A stretch of 40,696 nucleotides of DNA from a virus (Duplodnaviria > Heunggongvirae > Uroviricota > Caudoviricetes), in IMG/VR virus record IMGVR_UViG_3300017792_000001, positions 1 through 40,696 of that record; one strand, 5' to 3'. A program made the translations under genes and the position numbers. The notes below the pieces were generated by a model that was not told the DNA's origin, did no database searches, and worked only from the letters and a program-made list of their open reading frames with translations. Of this stretch, positions 9,850 through 25,447 are shown in pieces; position 1 is the stretch's first letter; every line of letters starts with the position of its first letter.

Positions 9850-10450
9850 GAAAGGACGCTATGGGCTGCCACGTTCATCAGTCACGGTTAGCGGCTTGAA
9901 CGTGAGGGATATTCAGGATGCTTTGATCCGTGCAGCTTGCGCATGTGGTCATGATCCAGATATGGTCGAAAGTGCGAAAGAAGGTGAGAATGCTGCGCTA
10001 CATCGCAACAGCCTGTTCTTGCTGTATGACCTAGACATGGCGGCAGTGCATGATGCTCTCGGGGATGAACTCGAAAAGCTCATGGGTATCTACCCGAATC
10101 TCCAAGGCGTTGAACCAAAGCCCATGCCGCAGCGTCGTGCGACTGATCGTCTCCCAGGTATGTCATCGGGAATGCTCGACCAGAACCTTTCCGAGCAGTT
10201 TGCCGAACGTTGTTTGAGTACGCTACCTAACGAGCGTCCGTATTCATCGCAGACCAAAGTACCTACACGTCGTTTGTCAGATGCGCAGGTTGAGGAGCTA
10301 GCTCAGTCCGATGTCGAGATTGACTCCGAAGGTCGCTACAACGGCTGGACTGAACGAGAGAAGATTCATGGACGTATGCGTGCTCTCGGCATTCCAATCC
10401 CAAACGACAAGCCAAGCCTCTGGCAGCGTTTCTTAAACCTTTTCGGATAA
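9800..10450 (+). CDS. hypothetical protein
   Basis: GGGA SD + CGAAC-ATG start; alternative start 9821. Confidence 0.7.
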   Translation: MLCRQPTMSRRRPHTGEKGRYGLPRSSVTVSGLNVRDIQDALIRAACACGHDPDMVESAKEGENAALHRNSLFLLYDLDMAAVHDALGDELEKLMGIYPNLQGVEPKPMPQRRATDRLPGMSSGMLDQNLSEQFAERCLSTLPNERPYSSQTKVPTRRLSDAQVEELAQSDVEIDSEGRYNGWTEREKIHGRMRALGIPIPNDKPSLWQRFLNLFG

Positions 10451-17758: not shown

Positions 17759-18228
17759 AACAGCAGAACCTGGAAATCGACGCATCCCAAACCTTTCTCG
17801 CCCGTCTGTTTGCGACTGTGCTGGCGCCTTTCTTCGGGCAGCGTGTTGACGACGTGAACCTTCGCGAAATGAACGCGGCTATGGTCAGCGCCAACATTGA
17901 CCCGATCTTCGCAACCAACATCGAAGTAACGGTCAACGACGAATGCATACGCGGTTCGTTTGAAGTCGCGGTATCGTTCACGCACGGCGGCAGTCAAGAC
18001 AAGGCCATGATCTACGTCACCGAAGCTGACTTGGGTCTTGGTGAAGTTAGCGCACTGGACGAGTATGCCGCTGCTATTGAACTGCACGGTGCTCGACTCT
18101 CTGCGCTCATGGACAAAGCGCGTAGCTGCCCGGCTGACCAGCGCATGGTGAGTCTCGCACACACCAATCTCCAGCAAGCGTTCTTCTGGTTGCGTGAAGC
18201 ACACAAGGAGCCGAAGCATGGGTACTGA
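17755..18228 (+). CDS. hypothetical protein with C-terminal Acb2-like helical hairpin domain
   Basis: C-terminal DL...EV...D.....IELHG.RL.AL.DK.R..P.DQR.VSLAHTNLQQAF..L..A..EP resembles Acb2-family sponges; key ligand residues appear substituted. Confidence 0.55.
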   Translation: MKQQNLEIDASQTFLARLFATVLAPFFGQRVDDVNLREMNAAMVSANIDPIFATNIEVTVNDECIRGSFEVAVSFTHGGSQDKAMIYVTEADLGLGEVSALDEYAAAIELHGARLSALMDKARSCPADQRMVSLAHTNLQQAFFWLREAHKEPKHGY

Positions 18229-19090
18229 ATTCTTTCCCGATGATACGGTGCAGTATCGCATCCAGATCATCGTCAACCAGTATCACGATCACCACCTGGC
18301 AGCCGTAACCAAGCAGAAGATTCAGGATCAGCTTAACCGCGACATCCCTGTCTACTGTGCTGCCAAGCTGGTGGTTGCCGACGACGAGGCACTTGAAAGC
18401 CACGGCGCCATTCGTGTGACGTGTGAAGTTCGCGGGGAGAAGCGCAGCTATGAGGTGTTCGCGCAGCACCAAGACGAAATGCCAATGTTGCCTCCGCTTT
18501 CTGTAGAGGAGCTTGCCGAGTCAAGCGCAATCTGGGAAGCAAAGCGCAAGCCGCCCGCGAAAGTTGTGATGATCTTGGCTATCGCTGAGAACAACGTCAT
18601 CGGTAAAAACGGTGCATTGCCTTGGCACATCCCCAACGACCTGAAGTTCTTCAAAGATCAGACCACGGGTCAACCTCTGGTCATTGGTCGTCGCACGTAC
18701 TGGAGCATGCCGAAGTCCGTTTGGAAGACACGCTATGCCAACGTGTTGACCTCCGACATCGAAAGCGTGTGCATGCCAGATGCTGGACAATGGCACGTCG
18801 GCGGCTGCATTCGTTCCATGGTGAACATGGCGAAGGTCAACTACAACGCCGACACCGTGTTCATCGCTGGTGGTAAGCGAGTCTATGAGGATGCGCTGCG
18901 TTACGATCTGGTCGATGAAATCCTGATCAGCCACGTCAAGGGCGACTTCGAAGGCAACGTCAAGCTTGAACTCGATCTGGACTTCCTGGGTTTCAGCGAG
19001 GGTGTCGTCGAACTCGAAGATCCACAGTTCACTGTGAAGCGCTACATTCGCCAGCGCGGCGCCAAGTTTGGAGTAGATACCAATGAATGA
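18218..19090 (+). CDS. dihydrofolate reductase with ~115-aa N-terminal extension
   Basis: AAGGAG SD; ILAIAENNVIGKNGALPWHIPNDLKFFKDQTTGQPLVIGRRTY and FIAGG..VY DHFR motifs begin at ~18563. Confidence 0.88.
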   Translation: MGTEFFPDDTVQYRIQIIVNQYHDHHLAAVTKQKIQDQLNRDIPVYCAAKLVVADDEALESHGAIRVTCEVRGEKRSYEVFAQHQDEMPMLPPLSVEELAESSAIWEAKRKPPAKVVMILAIAENNVIGKNGALPWHIPNDLKFFKDQTTGQPLVIGRRTYWSMPKSVWKTRYANVLTSDIESVCMPDAGQWHVGGCIRSMVNMAKVNYNADTVFIAGGKRVYEDALRYDLVDEILISHVKGDFEGNVKLELDLDFLGFSEGVVELEDPQFTVKRYIRQRGAKFGVDTNE

Positions 19091-19769: not shown

Positions 19770-19894
19770 AGATACCTGAACTATAAACATAACCGTTAGA
19801 GTGGTTGTACTACTGATTGCAGTAGTGTATAATGAACTTACGAGAGCTAACCCGAGCAGACTGCTTACTGGTTACGCGCTTAGGTTAGGTTACT
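19770..19894 (+). repeat. 125-bp regulatory cassette, copy A
   Basis: Homologous to 24394-24518; end boxes 24/25 and 21/25 identical between copies; the two boxes are imperfect inverted repeats of each other. Confidence 0.9.
19805..19833 (+). promoter_or_regulatory. sigma70 promoter with palindrome in the spacer
   Basis: TTGTAC-17 nt-TATAAT with extended TG; ACTACTG-ATTG-CAGTAGT inverted repeat overlaps the -35 and spacer. Confidence 0.85.
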
Positions 19895-19930
19895 CAATCG
19901 AACATGAACCCCATCAGAGAGACTACGAAC

Positions 19931-20215
19931 ATGACTACTGCAACCGCTCGCAAGACCACCACCGCTACTACCGCTATCAAAACCAAACCAGTTAAGAAGG
20001 TCGTTGCCATGAAGACTGCTGCCAAGAAAGTTGTCGCTATCAAACCAACGGCCAAGAAAGCTGCAAAGCCAGCTCGTGCCAAGAAGCCAGTGGTCAAAGT
20101 CCCACGTGCTCCACGCATGACTAACGATCAGCGTCAGATGGCTGCTGTCAACAAGTTTGCAGCTACCAAGTTGGTCAGCGGCTTGATCGCTACCTACGTT
20201 CGTGAGAGCGGCTAG
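19931..20215 (+). CDS. Lys/Ala-rich histone-H1-like protein; N-terminal part of an amber-interrupted ORF (19931-20935)
   Basis: KKVVAMKTAAKKVVAIKPTAKKAAKPARAKKP repeats; ends in TAG 20213-20215 in frame with the next ORF. Confidence 0.75.
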   Translation: MTTATARKTTTATTAIKTKPVKKVVAMKTAAKKVVAIKPTAKKAAKPARAKKPVVKVPRAPRMTNDQRQMAAVNKFAATKLVSGLIATYVRESG

Positions 20216-20254
20216 AAGATCGTCACCCACGTTGATCAGCCAGAAGTCAAGGCT

Positions 20255-20935
20255 GTGCTGAACCGTGACGTGTTTGTTCGTGACGCGCACACCCAGAAGC
20301 TGGTGAAACTGGGTCGCGTTGAAAGCGCACTGGCTAGCGTTTCCCCGCATCACATGGGCTTGTTCAACATCTACACAGTCTGGGTTGACGATGGCCAACT
20401 GCCTCTGCACCAGATCCGCAAGATCGGTACAAAGTTTGTGTTTGACGCTTCGCTGCCTATGCCGAACAAACGTCAAACTCACTTGGTTGATCGTATCGAC
20501 TTCGACCAGCCTCGCGGCAAGAAGCCACGCAGCAACATTGACCCGCTGGCTACTGTGAAGCAGGAAGAAGACAACCAGTCGCTGGGTTACAAAGCCGCCG
20601 CTGTTAAGCGTGGCATCGCAGCTTCCCGCAAGAAGCCTGGTACTCTGGACGTGCGTGAGCGCAACGACCTGGAAATCGCCAAGTCGGAAGTGAAGCTGAC
20701 CAAGGTTGAAGGCGAGTTGAGCGGTGCAGCAATCGCCAAGGGTACTGCCGTCATCATCGACTCCGAGATTCGCGGTGACGTGATCAAGACGACCAAGATC
20801 CTGATCGAAGGTAAAGGCACCAAGCGCAGCCCGTTCGTGAAGCGTCGTTACATCTTCACCGAGAAAGGTCAGAAGTGCCCAGTTGCTGACCTGAAGATCG
20901 TCCGTGGCAAACTGCGCGACGTTGTTGGCGCATAA
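20255..20935 (+). CDS. basic hypothetical protein; C-terminal part of the amber-interrupted ORF
   Basis: Same frame as 19931-20215, open from 20216; no well-spaced SD before GTG 20255. Confidence 0.7.
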   Translation: MLNRDVFVRDAHTQKLVKLGRVESALASVSPHHMGLFNIYTVWVDDGQLPLHQIRKIGTKFVFDASLPMPNKRQTHLVDRIDFDQPRGKKPRSNIDPLATVKQEEDNQSLGYKAAAVKRGIAASRKKPGTLDVRERNDLEIAKSEVKLTKVEGELSGAAIAKGTAVIIDSEIRGDVIKTTKILIEGKGTKRSPFVKRRYIFTEKGQKCPVADLKIVRGKLRDVVGA

Positions 20936-20948
20936 CTCAAACATTCAC

Positions 20949-20967
20949 AAGGGGCTCCGGCCCCTTT
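20949..20967 (+). terminator. stem-loop / weak terminator
   Basis: AAGGGGC-TCCG-GCCCCTT followed by T. Confidence 0.55.
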
Positions 20968-20988
20968 CACCAATTCTGGAGCACGAAC

Positions 20989-22257
20989 ATGACCACACGT
21001 ACTATTCGCGAGCGCGTTATCGCAATCATCGCCGAACAATTCGGTTTGAAGTTTGACATCATCAAAGACACTGACACCGTAGAGAGTCTTGGTGGTGACA
21101 GCTTGGACGCCGTCGAAACCCTCATGGGGCTCGAAGAAGAATTCGAGTGCCCGGATGTAGACGACGATGAAGCCATGCATTGGATGACTGTCGCCGATGT
21201 CGTGGCATATTTTGAGAAGCTGAGCCAGCCTCAAGTTGAAGCAGCTAAGCCGGCGCGTAAAAAGCCAGTTCACCCGTCCACCGTCAACGCGGTAAAGAAA
21301 GCGCCTAAAGCATCGGCCTTCGACGTGCCGAGCATTGCTGGCTACGCACACCGTGCCGAAGTCGAGTTCAAGCAAATCAAGTTCCGCTTCGGCAATGACA
21401 GCCAGAAGGCTCTCAAGAAGGTCGGTGACGCTGAGCAGAAAGCTACAGACAAGGCACTGGCTGCTGGTGTCAAAGCTGACAAACTCACCACCACGATCGT
21501 GGCTGAGAACAAAGCAACGCCTGCGGCAAAACAGGTTCAACCGCATCTGAGCGCTATTCGCCTGTACCTGGTGCGTAAAGTGCGTGCAACTCAAGAACTG
21601 GTTGCAGGCCCGTTTGCGTTTCGTGAACAAGCGCGTACTGCACTGCGCAACTTCCTAATGGCAAACCATCAGGTCGATCCACGCCAGATGTTCATGCGTA
21701 TGGGCCGCGAACTGAATCACGGCAAGTTCACCGTGGCTAAAGGTCTGCGTCTGCCGAAGGCCAAGGTAATCTCGGTTCGCACTGACGCACGACCAAAGGC
21801 TACTGCCAAGCAGATTGCACAACGCAAGGCGAGTCAAGCTGCAACTAACGCCCGTCGTGCCGTGATTCGCTCAAACCGTTTGATCACTACAGCCATTCGT
21901 ATCAAGTCTGGCAGCCTGTATGTACTCGACAAGCGCGACCGCATCGTTGCAGGTCCTTTCAGCACGTTGAAAGCGGCGCACGAAGTTTGCATGGGTATCA
22001 AAGACCAGTACGTGCAAACGGGTGCGCGCTGCCGTAATGACAACCTGGGTTACATCCTAGGATTCAAACCAGCAACACCCGCCAAAGTCACCGGCGGTAT
22101 GTTTGCAGTCGGTGCTCCAATGATGATCGCCGCTGTTCGCACCAAGATCACCGCATACGATTCGAAAACCAAGACAGTCACGACTGGTCTTGGCACTGTG
22201 CATCCGTGTGCAGACTTCTTCATCAACTACCACAAGGCCATGCTGGCCGTCGCATAA
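20989..22257 (+). CDS. acyl carrier protein domain fused to a ~340-aa basic region
   Basis: Residues 1-77 align with AcpP (IRERV..II.EQ.G......LG.DSLD.VE..M.LEEEF.....DDEA....TV.D...Y); Ser38 attachment site intact. Confidence 0.85.
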   Translation: MTTRTIRERVIAIIAEQFGLKFDIIKDTDTVESLGGDSLDAVETLMGLEEEFECPDVDDDEAMHWMTVADVVAYFEKLSQPQVEAAKPARKKPVHPSTVNAVKKAPKASAFDVPSIAGYAHRAEVEFKQIKFRFGNDSQKALKKVGDAEQKATDKALAAGVKADKLTTTIVAENKATPAAKQVQPHLSAIRLYLVRKVRATQELVAGPFAFREQARTALRNFLMANHQVDPRQMFMRMGRELNHGKFTVAKGLRLPKAKVISVRTDARPKATAKQIAQRKASQAATNARRAVIRSNRLITTAIRIKSGSLYVLDKRDRIVAGPFSTLKAAHEVCMGIKDQYVQTGARCRNDNLGYILGFKPATPAKVTGGMFAVGAPMMIAAVRTKITAYDSKTKTVTTGLGTVHPCADFFINYHKAMLAVA

Positions 22258-22266
22258 GGAGAGAGC

Positions 22267-22599
22267 ATGACCCCGCATTTACCTGGAGACGTCGCTTCGC
22301 CCGAAGAAGGTGAAGCGTGCCAAACGTGTGGTAAACCAGCCACACAGAAACTCTGCTTTGAGGCTGACAGCTTCGGTGCAGACTACGCATACCTGTGTGA
22401 CGAGCACTTTGAGGAAGAACGCGAAGCCATGCGCAACGCTGACACCTCTGGTGCTTGCGACTGGTGCAAGAAGCACAGCGAGAAGCGATTCCCGCAGCGT
22501 GATCTAGAGGAGGGTAGCCACGGTGCAGTGTATGACGTGTGCCGTCCATGTATCGACAAACTTCATGCGTCTTGGCGTGAAGAACTGGAGGAAGACTGA
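22267..22599 (+). CDS. Cys-rich putative zinc-finger protein
   Basis: CxxC...LCDEH and CxxC...CxxC ligand sets; GGAG SD. Confidence 0.8.
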   Translation: MTPHLPGDVASPEEGEACQTCGKPATQKLCFEADSFGADYAYLCDEHFEEEREAMRNADTSGACDWCKKHSEKRFPQRDLEEGSHGAVYDVCRPCIDKLHASWREELEED

Positions 22600-22880
22600 T
22601 GGCTAAGCTACGCGATAAACAGGTTGCACTTTCACTGGCAGAAGCAGTCCTCGCAACCGCGAAAGCGCGTGAGGAAAGTTACGATCAGGTGGGCGCCGAC
22701 ATGGCATCTGTGAGCGCTCAAAACAATAGCATCGGTTTTGACGCCGAGACCTATTACAAGCTCACCATTCAACAGGCTGCTGAGCAGTGCTGCCCCGCAC
22801 CGTTCGTTGAGCCAGTAGCCATGCTGTTGCGCAACAACTGGAACGACAGCCTCGATTGGGCAAAGAACGCTGTACTGTAA
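22599..22880 (+). CDS. hypothetical protein
   Basis: GGAGG SD, TGATG overlap. Confidence 0.8.
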   Translation: MAKLRDKQVALSLAEAVLATAKAREESYDQVGADMASVSAQNNSIGFDAETYYKLTIQQAAEQCCPAPFVEPVAMLLRNNWNDSLDWAKNAVL

Positions 22881-22882
22881 AC
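22873..22882 (+). promoter_or_regulatory. TACTGTAAAC variant of the promoter motif
   Basis: 9/10 match, at the gene end, 48 nt before ATG 22931. Confidence 0.55.
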
Positions 22883-22930
22883 ACTCACTGACAGAGCGTC
22901 TATGTTGGGCGCTCTAACCGAGGAACGAAA

Positions 22931-24346
22931 ATGTCTATCTCTCCAAATCTGAACATGCTTATCGGCGGCATTCAAGTTGCACAACTTCCGGGCGCGGCAG
23001 CGGTATCCGTCTTCAACCTGATTTACGAGAACCGCGAACTCGCGCACACCCACGATGCGTTCGCCAAGATCAGTCAACTCCGTCCACTGGCTCAGGCTAT
23101 CAACATTCGCCTGACTCCGAATGCGCCGCGTCTGGCTGCAGCTGGTGCCAAGACTGAGCTGGCATTCAGCCCGTTCGAAGCGCTGAGCCTGTTCCACATC
23201 ATCGGCGCAAACATCACGCTGCGTCAAGCTGAACTGGCTCTGGTCACTGGCCGTATCGCGGTCGATCAAACCCATGCTGATGACGAGGAAGCTGAACCTT
23301 CCACCACCGAAGAAATCGCGCATGAACTGTGCGACCAACTCGACAGCGCGCAAATCTACCAGATCGTTGCGAAGCTGCCGCTGGACGGTATCGTTGCATC
23401 GCAGACCGCCGACTTCGACCTGGCTATGGCTTTGCTTGAACAGTACGGCGATACCAAGATCCAGATGACGCTGCTGGAACTCGGCATCGACTTCATTCAC
23501 CCGGACGAACCAAGCGAACCTTCTGTTATCGACACCGAAGACAGCGAAGAATTCATCGCCGAAATCCAGGATCAACTGGGCGACGACAAGATCACCAAGC
23601 TGGTCAAGGAATTCATCACCGAAGAAGATGAAGACGACGAGCCGGACATGCTGCTGGACCTGGTTGTCGAGCGCCATGGTATCGAAGCCGTTCACCAGAA
23701 GATCATCGACCTGGGCTTCGAATTCACCTCCGACCTCCTGGAAATGGAAGACCCGGACGAGTTTGAAGCGGAAGATGAAGACGAAGGCCCTGCTGCTCCG
23801 TCTGACTACGCGCTGACTGTACTGCGCAACGATCTGGAAGGCCTGCATCACAACGACCAGGTGATCCTGACCAAAGCTGTCGAGCACTCGGCAGAAGACA
23901 CGTCGGCCATGTCCTCGATGGTTGACTTCCTGATGGAGCACCCGAGCTACACCCTCGAAGCTCTGAAAGAGCACGGCATCCATCTGCAAAACTTCAAGGC
24001 AGTAATGCGCCTGCAGGACGAAGACGAAGACCGCGAAGAACGTCTGCACCGTCTCGACATTCAGGACCTGGAAATCCTGTGCGACGTGCTCGGCATCAAT
24101 CGCGTAGATCAAGACCACGACGATCTGATCGACCTGCTGTGCTGCCGTCCGCAGAGCGAGTTTGAATCTGCCCTGGAAATCACGGACATCGTATTGCCAG
24201 GTCTGGACTACGGCAGCGAAGAACCAACCATCGACGAGTACCGTGCAAACTTCGAACACATCGCCCACCTGACAATGCTGCAATCGGCGGTAGCTGCCTG
24301 CATCGCTGACAGCACGCAAGACCTGGTCCTCAGCTTCACGCACTAA
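22931..24346 (+). CDS. very acidic protein with an internal ~60-aa duplication
   Basis: GAGGA SD; D/E-rich linkers; duplicated unit at 23309-23494 and 23546-23725. Confidence 0.85.
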   Translation: MSISPNLNMLIGGIQVAQLPGAAAVSVFNLIYENRELAHTHDAFAKISQLRPLAQAINIRLTPNAPRLAAAGAKTELAFSPFEALSLFHIIGANITLRQAELALVTGRIAVDQTHADDEEAEPSTTEEIAHELCDQLDSAQIYQIVAKLPLDGIVASQTADFDLAMALLEQYGDTKIQMTLLELGIDFIHPDEPSEPSVIDTEDSEEFIAEIQDQLGDDKITKLVKEFITEEDEDDEPDMLLDLVVERHGIEAVHQKIIDLGFEFTSDLLEMEDPDEFEAEDEDEGPAAPSDYALTVLRNDLEGLHHNDQVILTKAVEHSAEDTSAMSSMVDFLMEHPSYTLEALKEHGIHLQNFKAVMRLQDEDEDREERLHRLDIQDLEILCDVLGINRVDQDHDDLIDLLCCRPQSEFESALEITDIVLPGLDYGSEEPTIDEYRANFEHIAHLTMLQSAVAACIADSTQDLVLSFTH

Positions 24347-24393: not shown

Positions 24394-24518
24394 AGATACC
24401 TGAACTAAAAACATAACCACTAACCCCATTGTACTACTGATCACAGTCGTGATATAATGAATCACGAAAGCGAAACCGAGACAGCTACATACTGGTTACG
24501 CACTTAGTTAAGGTTACA
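24394..24518 (+). repeat. 125-bp regulatory cassette, copy B
   Basis: See copy A; same 25-75-25 bp architecture. Confidence 0.9.
24429..24458 (+). promoter_or_regulatory. sigma70 promoter with palindrome in the spacer
   Basis: TTGTAC-18 nt-TATAAT; ACTACTG-ATCA-CAGTCGT near-palindrome. Confidence 0.8.
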
Positions 24519-24551: not shown

Positions 24552-24755
24552 ATGACCGTCAAGAACATCACGCAAATTGCCGCTGTCAGCATCAACTACC
24601 GCTGCCCGCACTGCGACTTGGTTATCTCAATGGGTAGTGACGACCTAAGAGTCGGCGTGCCGTTCAAATGTTTCTGCAAGCGCGAAGTTGTAATACCGGA
24701 AGGCACTGAGCTCCAACTGCCTCTGTTGAACATGAACATCAAACTCACCAAGTAA
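24552..24755 (+). CDS. small zinc-ribbon protein
   Basis: AAGGAG SD; CPHC...CFC. Confidence 0.75.
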   Translation: MTVKNITQIAAVSINYRCPHCDLVISMGSDDLRVGVPFKCFCKREVVIPEGTELQLPLLNMNIKLTK

Positions 24756-24766
24756 GGACTACGAAC

Positions 24767-25447
24767 ATGAACAGCACTTTTACCAAACGCCAGGAATTCA
24801 TCACCGCCATCCAGGCTGTCGCCGCAGAAGCGGGTGTGCCGTCATACACCAGCTGCATCATGAGCGACCAGGACGAACTGTTTGACGGCGAGTCGCAATG
24901 GAAGATTCGCTTCAACGACGGTGGCCCAGTGATCAGTATCACCGAGCACCGCGACGAGTACGCGGACGAGGAAGAAGATCGCAGCTACCAGACAGCCGCG
25001 CTTCTCGACTCTGACAAGGCAGACGCCGCATACAGTATGTCGCGCTCCTGGCCGCGCAGCATGTTGTTTGACCTGCGTGAAAAGTTGATCCCCGGCTACA
25101 GCAACGCCGTGGTCGAGACACCAGATGGTTTCGTCTGGCGCATAGTGACTGGTGACGTAGTGCGCGAACTGCCTGTCAAGTTGTACGAGACGGCAATCCC
25201 GAGCAGCGCCGGTGATTACGAGTTCGACCTCGACACCGAAGCCGCGAATGCCTTCTTCGAAGTACAGCCGTGTGTTTACGACAACGGTGATTACATCGAC
25301 TATGAGAAGGCGGTCGAGAAGTCTGCCGAGAAGTTTGTGATCAGGACCTTCTGGTTCTCGGGTGACAGCGACAGCTTCGGTCCGCTGATTCGCTGCGCCA
25401 AGTTCACCCTGGCCAACGGCGTCGTGTTGCACGCCAGTTACGGATAA
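24767..25447 (+). CDS. acidic hypothetical protein
   Basis: AAGGA SD + ACGAAC-ATG. Confidence 0.85.
   Translation: MNSTFTKRQEFITAIQAVAAEAGVPSYTSCIMSDQDELFDGESQWKIRFNDGGPVISITEHRDEYADEEEDRSYQTAALLDSDKADAAYSMSRSWPRSMLFDLREKLIPGYSNAVVETPDGFVWRIVTGDVVRELPVKLYETAIPSSAGDYEFDLDTEAANAFFEVQPCVYDNGDYIDYEKAVEKSAEKFVIRTFWFSGDSDSFGPLIRCAKFTLANGVVLHASYG

Follow-up and report, generated by a model that had tools for sequence, protein, structure and literature searches.

What would a phage gain from an acyl carrier protein (ACP) that does not stand alone but heads a long basic protein? The question is raised by the 422-residue protein P0001, which is encoded within a 40,696-nt window (positions 1 to 40,696) of the IMG/VR virus record IMGVR_UViG_3300017792_000001. 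The record is a complete genome of 277,601 bp with direct terminal repeats, and the window is its first 40.7 kb. The large terminase shares 77% identity with its counterpart in Pseudomonas phage PaBG (Baikalvirus) and about 50% with those of Lu11 and HRDY3, by which the source phage is placed as an uncultured PaBG-like jumbo myovirus. A sequence-only reading of the window had described the open reading frame at 20989-22257 as an ACP fused to a basic part and had suggested that the phage may tether an ACP decoy to DNA or to its replication site. The first of these, the observation, is confirmed below, and the interpretation is supported in part: P0001 is a real gene and a genuine in-frame fusion of ACP and core under selection.

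20989-22257, + strand: whole gene of P0001, 422 aa, from the ATG at 20989 to the TAA at 22255-22257 (eight syntenic relatives)
20978-20981, + strand: Shine-Dalgarno sequence GGAG, 7 nt 5' of the ATG (read from the sequence)

An ACP joined in frame to a conserved phage protein

The family of P0001 was collected by word-indexed and exhaustive HMMER searches and comprises 15 protein clusters, P0001 and 14 others. P0001 displays the features of the family, namely a helix with the pattern AExxAxxxA, two modules with a GPF motif, a C-terminal barrel and a gene position between a basic and a zinc-ribbon gene. All members that could be placed lie in one gene order, in loci of PaBG-like jumbo phages: dihydrofolate reductase (DHFR), small genes, a basic gene (314-490 aa), the core gene, a zinc-ribbon gene (86-111 aa), an acidic gene (410-485 aa) and, further on, NUDIX. 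Within this constant order the part in front of the core takes four forms.

Core alone: P0009, P0011, P0014, P0015
N-terminal domain (about 90 aa) and core: P0003, P0004, P0012
N-terminal domain, ACP and core: P0002, P0005, P0006, P0010, P0013
ACP and core: P0001, P0007, P0008

A domain-architecture search, the check suggested together with the sequence-only reading, thus returned the ACP in frame with the core in 8 of the 15 clusters, from independent samples and at core identities down to 26%. Since the same arrangement occurs in eight independent proteins, the fusion is not an artefact. That reading had also reckoned with related phages in which ACP and tail would be encoded separately; when the related loci were searched locally with an HMM, no separate ACP gene came to light near the cores that lack an ACP, and a set of 5.8 billion proteins contains neither a close stand-alone version of the P0001 head nor another fusion partner for it. 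That two genes were joined by misassembly or a frameshift, or that the frame is non-coding, is hardly credible in the face of these absences and of seven other proteins from independent samples with the same in-frame join; moreover, the linker is in frame without stops and both halves are under purifying selection (see below). No evidence was found in favour of such an origin, the only circumstances of that kind being that the record is metagenome-derived and that the adjoining upstream gene contains an in-frame stop.

No cultured phage with the core was found among 50,697 phage records, either by blastn with the gene or by tblastn with P0001, P0009 and P0015; the matches were limited to the ACP domain and were all stand-alone phage ACPs. 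A scan of IMG/VR with the core alignment gave no further members, and PaBG, the nearest isolate, lacks both the core family and the entire module that lies between DHFR and NUDIX.

The N-terminal domain of the relatives is an orphan of about 90 aa with the conserved sequence IRSQFxGxRK...SRFGGIxFDY, and it stands before the ACP or in its place. It has no Pfam, PHROG or Atlas match and is absent from the genome to which the window belongs. Its identity as a degenerate ACP was considered and rejected (hhalign probability 0.2%), and a complex prediction of it with the ACP head, made without controls (score 0.00), speaks neither for nor against binding.

Positions 10001-10270 of locus L004: N-terminal head domain (P0002 residues 1-90); also in P0003, P0004, P0005, P0006, P0010, P0012 and P0013

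The AcpP-like head

20998-21225, + strand: AcpP-like acyl carrier domain, residues 4-79, four-helix bundle, net charge -14 (Pfam PF00550, PHROG 5934, Foldseek, phmmer against the PDB)
21100-21102, + strand: AGC codon of Ser38, predicted phosphopantetheine attachment site in GGDSLD (sequence; 8 of 8 ACP-bearing members)

An AcpP-like domain with an intact GGDSLD motif and the Ser38 codon at 21100 had been read from the sequence, and all three hold. Residues 8-74 match the Pfam PP-binding family (PF00550) with 36.9 bits against a cut-off of 20.8, covering profile positions 1-66 of 67, and the head matches PHROG 5934, 'acyl carrier protein', at E 3e-12. In a six-frame search of the genome the same match scored 40.9 bits, and the P0001 head is the only PP-binding domain in the entire phage genome. 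Foldseek with the modelled head and phmmer against the PDB both lead to E. coli AcpP (PF00550, TIGR00517; PDB 1l0i, 4etw_B), with 44% identity and a template modelling (TM) score of 0.91 by target. The model, with a predicted local distance difference test (pLDDT) value of about 80, has helices at residues 6-18, 38-52, 59-63 and 68-79 and places Ser38 in the DSL motif at the N-terminus of helix II. In the HMMER alignment with AcpP the recognition helix is complete (DSLDaVE..M.LEEEF), and all the acidic residues of helix II, which AcpS and the partner enzymes of AcpP use, are retained.

The likeness to AcpP has limits. The head scores 56.5 bits with the AcpP equivalog model TIGR00517, under the cut-off of 70.45, which argues against its being an AcpP orthologue, and it has a family-specific Cys/Thr after VE and a family-specific Trp65. 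Whereas AcpP is a free protein of 78 aa, the P0001 head is followed by a 342-aa tail and lies outside any fab cluster, in a genome with no ketosynthase or acyltransferase matches. The head is best described, on sequence grounds, as a divergent AcpP-like carrier, neither an AcpP orthologue nor a copy of a host gene. It also resembles the stand-alone ACPs of other phages (PHROG 5934; Ralstonia phiRSL1, Pseudomonas HRDY3, Burkholderia BCSR5 and Brevundimonas Bajun), which are likewise AcpP-like, are 37-44% identical to it and belong to jumbo phages of the same broad group; unlike P0001, they are separate genes of about 80 aa without a basic core.

Profile searches of the phage genome gave no match for a phosphopantetheinyl transferase (PPTase) of the ACPS/Sfp type (PF01648), nor for AMP-binding (PF00501), ketoacyl synthase (PF00109) or PlsC acyltransferase (PF01553) domains, all of which were matched in control genomes. 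Cofactor attachment and partners would therefore be host-derived or of unrecognised families; in the absence of a phage PPTase, host AcpS would have to act on Ser38.

Linker and folded basic core

21226-21330, + strand: flexible Pro/Ala/Lys-rich linker, residues 80-114, about 35 aa (pLDDT 31-38, alignment gaps)
21331-21507, + strand: long basic helix 1, residues 115-173, about 60 aa, with invariant A148, E149, A152 and A156
21562-21735, + strand: module 1, residues 192-249, beta-hairpin, GPF, helix and two strands, net charge about +10 (pLDDT 83-87)
21805-21894, + strand: basic helix 2, residues 273-302, net charge +7 (AlphaFold2 model, charge count)
21916-22059, + strand: module 2, residues 310-357, a duplicate of module 1 (pLDDT >90, hhalign)
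22078-22254, + strand: C-terminal small beta-barrel, residues 364-422, SH3/Tudor/KOW-like (model)

The tail that follows the head is strongly basic, as had been claimed (net charge +39 over 342 aa, pI 10.6, K+R+A 34%; +25 for the whole protein), and pI values within the core family range from 9.4 to 10.4. It is, however, more than a low-complexity extension: the tail contains a folded core in three parts, in which no DNA-binding family was detected. An AlphaFold2 model built with the 15-sequence alignment has a mean pLDDT of 79 over residues 108-422 and exceeds 90 in the C-terminal 150 residues; predicted disorder is confined to about residues 81-114 and two short linkers, the remainder being folded and conserved. 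A low-complexity tail of the H1-like/HC2 kind (PF07382) was rejected accordingly: there is no HC2 match, and most of the tail has pLDDT 80-95 and a conserved, non-repetitive sequence, with HC2-type low-complexity character limited to residues 80-114.

The model describes the core as a long helix followed by a beta-beta-alpha-beta-beta module, the pair occurring twice, and then an SH3/KOW/Tudor-like barrel. Modules 1 and 2 are homologous (hhalign probability 95%, E 3.8e-8). Five core residues are invariant in the family, A148, E149, A152 and A156 of helix 1 and P208 in the GPF motif of module 1, and G207 of that module is nearly so.

The core has no significant family match in Pfam, PHROGs, NCBIfam or PADLOC. 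Comparison with the PDB (profile and Foldseek), BFVD and the ESM Atlas (features and shape) likewise gave nothing significant, the modules not having been searched alone, and a wide VIA-align search gave nothing significant, its matches being dominated by the long helix. The core is a new, phage-only orphan protein family with a confidently predicted structure and no known relatives.

The barrel model is of the type seen in the TraI translocation-signal domain (4l0j), the Tudor domains of PHF1 and SMN and the KOW domain of Spt5.

Two other readings start from the weak or sub-threshold matches of this core. In the first, its basic helices would sit with the KOW-like barrel on rRNA or ribosomes and place the ACP on the translation machinery. 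The barrel has weak fold matches to uL2, Spt5 KOW and EF-P domain I, the charge and the long basic helices are like those of ribosomal proteins, a KOW match (E 0.31) and a LYRM2-like match (E 0.17) occur in one family member each, and an analogy is offered by the mitochondrial MALSU1-L0R8F8-mtACP module, which includes the mitochondrial ACP (mtACP) and sits on the large ribosomal subunit. We consider this ribosomal placement quite improbable. Still further down the scale, and very improbable, is a role in the cell envelope, in which the two modules would be SPOR- or RodZ_C-like and bind peptidoglycan. It draws on RodZ_C and SPOR matches in a few members, all under the cut-off (for SPOR, PF05036, module 2 scores 16.8-18.1 bits against 21, with 2 of the 15 members at E <=1). 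The N-terminus of P0001 is the ACP itself, and its sequence contains neither a signal peptide nor a hydrophobic, membrane-spanning segment; phosphopantetheinylation is cytoplasmic; and the module order beta-beta-alpha-beta-beta differs from that of SPOR, which is beta-alpha-beta-beta-alpha-beta. Module 1 additionally gave a sub-threshold match to DUF6316 in 6 family members.

The arrangement of a small carrier on a disordered Pro/Ala/Lys leash next to a structured core recalls, by analogy, other carrier domains on flexible Ala/Pro-rich linkers, such as the lipoyl domains of the E2 component of 2-oxo-acid dehydrogenases and the ACPs of type I fatty acid synthases (FAS) and polyketide synthases (PKS). 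In contrast to these scaffolds, the P0001 core has no enzyme-like invariants or known catalytic fold, and no partner enzymes were found in the genome.

Exchange and selection of the head

When the core is placed on a maximum-likelihood tree, different architectures stand side by side within two well-supported tight clades, one composed of {ACP, N-domain plus ACP, N-domain, N-domain} and the other of {N-domain, N-domain plus ACP, neither}, which implies repeated loss of the ACP and of the N-terminal head. The head of P0001 also has a history distinct from that of its core. P0007 shares 75% identity with P0001 in the ACP and 23% in the core, and P0002 shares 54% in the ACP and 80% in the core; since these identities conflict, the P0001 gene is a recombinant whose junction lies in the linker. 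The linker, on whose two sides the identities disagree, varies in length and sequence among relatives, and its reading frame is open. The Cys/Thr after VE and Trp65 are common to the heads, which points to a single origin for them.

Both parts are constrained: against close relatives, the ratio of nonsynonymous to synonymous substitution rates (dN/dS) is 0.16-0.18 for the ACP and 0.13-0.23 for the core, and LGGDSLDxVE and LEExFE, serine included, are retained in all eight heads. The comparisons present the ACP as an accessory, mobile and exchangeable head that is still under purifying selection, with the core as the constant part.

Retention of the serine bears on two further explanations. In the first, the head (-14) would be an intramolecular acidic cap that masks or solubilises the core (+39) until its target is met, in the manner of a DNA mimic or a chaperone, the cofactor being irrelevant. 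The opposite charges of head and core agree with this, as does the fact that relatives can do without the head or have a different head domain in its place. A mere cap, however, would need neither the serine nor the full helix for AcpS and partners, which all eight heads keep at dN/dS of about 0.17, and the N-terminal head found in relatives lacks an acidic, helical character and, by the hhalign comparison above, is unrelated to the ACP. We regard the cap as improbable. In the second, the holo-head would be a covalent carrier; once a host enzyme or an unrecognised phage enzyme had loaded it with an acyl group, or with something else bound as a thioester, it would bring this load to a target held by the core, be it DNA, RNA or a bound protein. 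The strict serine, the purifying selection on the head and the leash typical of carrier domains speak for such a role. Against it, no PPTase, adenylating enzyme, ketosynthase or PlsC-type acyltransferase was found in the phage genome; the core invariants are mostly Ala, Gly and Pro, with one Glu and one near-invariant Tyr, and form no active-site pattern; and the relatives without an ACP retain the same core and neighbours. Covalent delivery, too, seems unlikely to be the answer.

Genomic neighbourhood

19770-19893 and 24394-24517: two copies of the 124-nt cassette A repeat, 73% identical
19805-19833, + strand: sigma-70-like promoter TTGTAC-17 nt-TATAAT in the first cassette copy (read from the sequence)
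19904-20935: basic protein, net charge +21 and +16 (two pieces)
20949-20966, + strand: 7-bp GC-rich hairpin with a UCCG loop, followed by three T only (read from the sequence; not called as a terminator)
20989-22257: P0001 gene, net charge +25
22267-22599: zinc-ribbon protein, 110 aa, Cys-rich, phrog_15864 (E 1e-24), net charge -14
22599-22880: 93-aa protein, net charge -4
22931-24346: acidic protein, 471 aa, pI 4.15, net charge -75

The cassette A under which the gene had been placed is present as a 124-nt repeat, and the genes between its two copies lie on the same strand and are tightly spaced. The promoter-like site at 19805-19833, which was not called by a promoter scan (its -35 element matches at 3/6 positions only), is likely the start of the five-gene block 19904-24346, and the block may be one transcription unit, probably early, that host RNA polymerase drives.

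The neighbour that had been called histone-like is indeed a basic protein adjoining P0001; as for its histone character, the HC2 (H1-like) match of the 19904-20215 product is sub-threshold, at 22.9 bits against a cut-off of 40. The gene at 19904-20935 is one frame broken by a single in-frame TAG at 20213-20215. In four relatives, whose proteins are 314-458 aa long, this codon is Glu or Ala (VREQGEKIVTH compared with VRESG*KIVTH); the TAG could be explained by a nonsense mutation, by an error in sequencing or by suppression. The C-terminal two thirds of this basic gene are more conserved than the ACP gene.

Between the stop of the basic gene (20933-20935) and the ACP gene, the hairpin at 20949-20966 may act as an attenuator, an RNA-stability element or a modulator of read-through. 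A 29-nt repeat (TCACCAAnTnnGGAnnACGAACATGAnCA) covers the ribosome-binding site and start codon of two genes, at 20967-20995 and 24745-24773, and agrees with a CGAAC-ATG start signature.

Downstream, the zinc-ribbon gene (86-111 aa in relatives) always follows the core gene directly, whether or not an ACP is present. The acidic protein has no Pfam or PHROG match; every related locus has a conserved counterpart of it (410-485 aa) 3' of the core gene, and it is a candidate DNA mimic, or else a candidate chaperone that would serve the block's two basic proteins. Upstream, the DHFR encoded at 18194-19090 is extended at its N-terminus by about 120 aa, so that residues 124-258 of 298 make up the DHFR domain; the long form (286-289 aa) is common to close relatives, and a short form (176-182 aa) occurs in PaBG and two more distant relatives.

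Discussion

How, then, might an AcpP-like head serve a basic phage protein? The best reading, which we hold tentatively and at less than even confidence, is that P0001 is a scaffold bound to a polyanion that presents a holo-ACP bait to host proteins that are clients of AcpP. A host-type promoter would drive its gene together with those of the H1-like basic protein, the zinc-ribbon protein and the extremely acidic protein of the block. Through its basic core P0001 would be anchored on a polyanion, DNA or the nucleoid being the likeliest target; host AcpS would turn the head into holo-ACP, and the head, swinging on its leash, would dock host proteins that normally bind AcpP, which would thereby be recruited to, or sequestered at, the site of the core. 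The retained serine and AcpP-type helix, the strongly basic partner, the H1-like neighbour and the lack of phage carrier enzymes fit such a tethered ACP that engages host partners. The barrel, for its part, resembles Tudor, KOW and SH3 folds, among which binders of nucleic acids or proteins are common. Because the ACP has been lost repeatedly and is dispensable to the family, it would modulate the job of the core instead of defining it; the head would tune a function to which it is not essential.

Several points weigh against the bait scaffold. Some lineages have no ACP, so whatever the ACP recruits is not needed for the role of the core. Positive charge by itself is weak evidence for polyanion binding, and the sequence and fold libraries named above gave the core no significant match to a family, motif or fold that binds nucleic acids. 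Early expression is inferred from a promoter-like sequence only. PaBG lacks the module, and no experimental data can therefore be transferred from the closest cultured relative.

The tether proposed by the sequence-only reading is borne out in so far as the fusion is recurrent and selected, with serine and helix retained; it loses ground in that the ACP is dispensable and the tail is not an H1-like arm. In its site-specific form, the core would lie on phage or host DNA together with the H1-like protein, and the holo-head would capture an AcpP-dependent factor, for example one of the stringent response or of chromosome organisation, or deliver a thioester-bound group. This version seems to us rather unlikely as a whole. 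Phage Paride, with its ppGpp dependence, was considered as a lead and dropped, the Paride literature that was located making no mention of PaBG. The probability left after the bait scaffold and the five rival explanations belongs to something else.

The phage ACP is of a known kind; the ACP plus core architecture and the orphan core family are new. Phage ACPs are often annotated, and their function is not known to have been explained; a literature search found no paper on an ACP fused to such a protein or explaining phage ACPs. In P0001, one reading frame links the carrier to a partner that is defined and conserved, with the cofactor serine under selection, in a genome without carrier-using enzymes, and the protein thus offers a tangible way into the question of what phage ACPs are for. 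If the head does engage host AcpP clients, phages would have a previously unseen means of taking over the host, by way of the ACP interaction hub.
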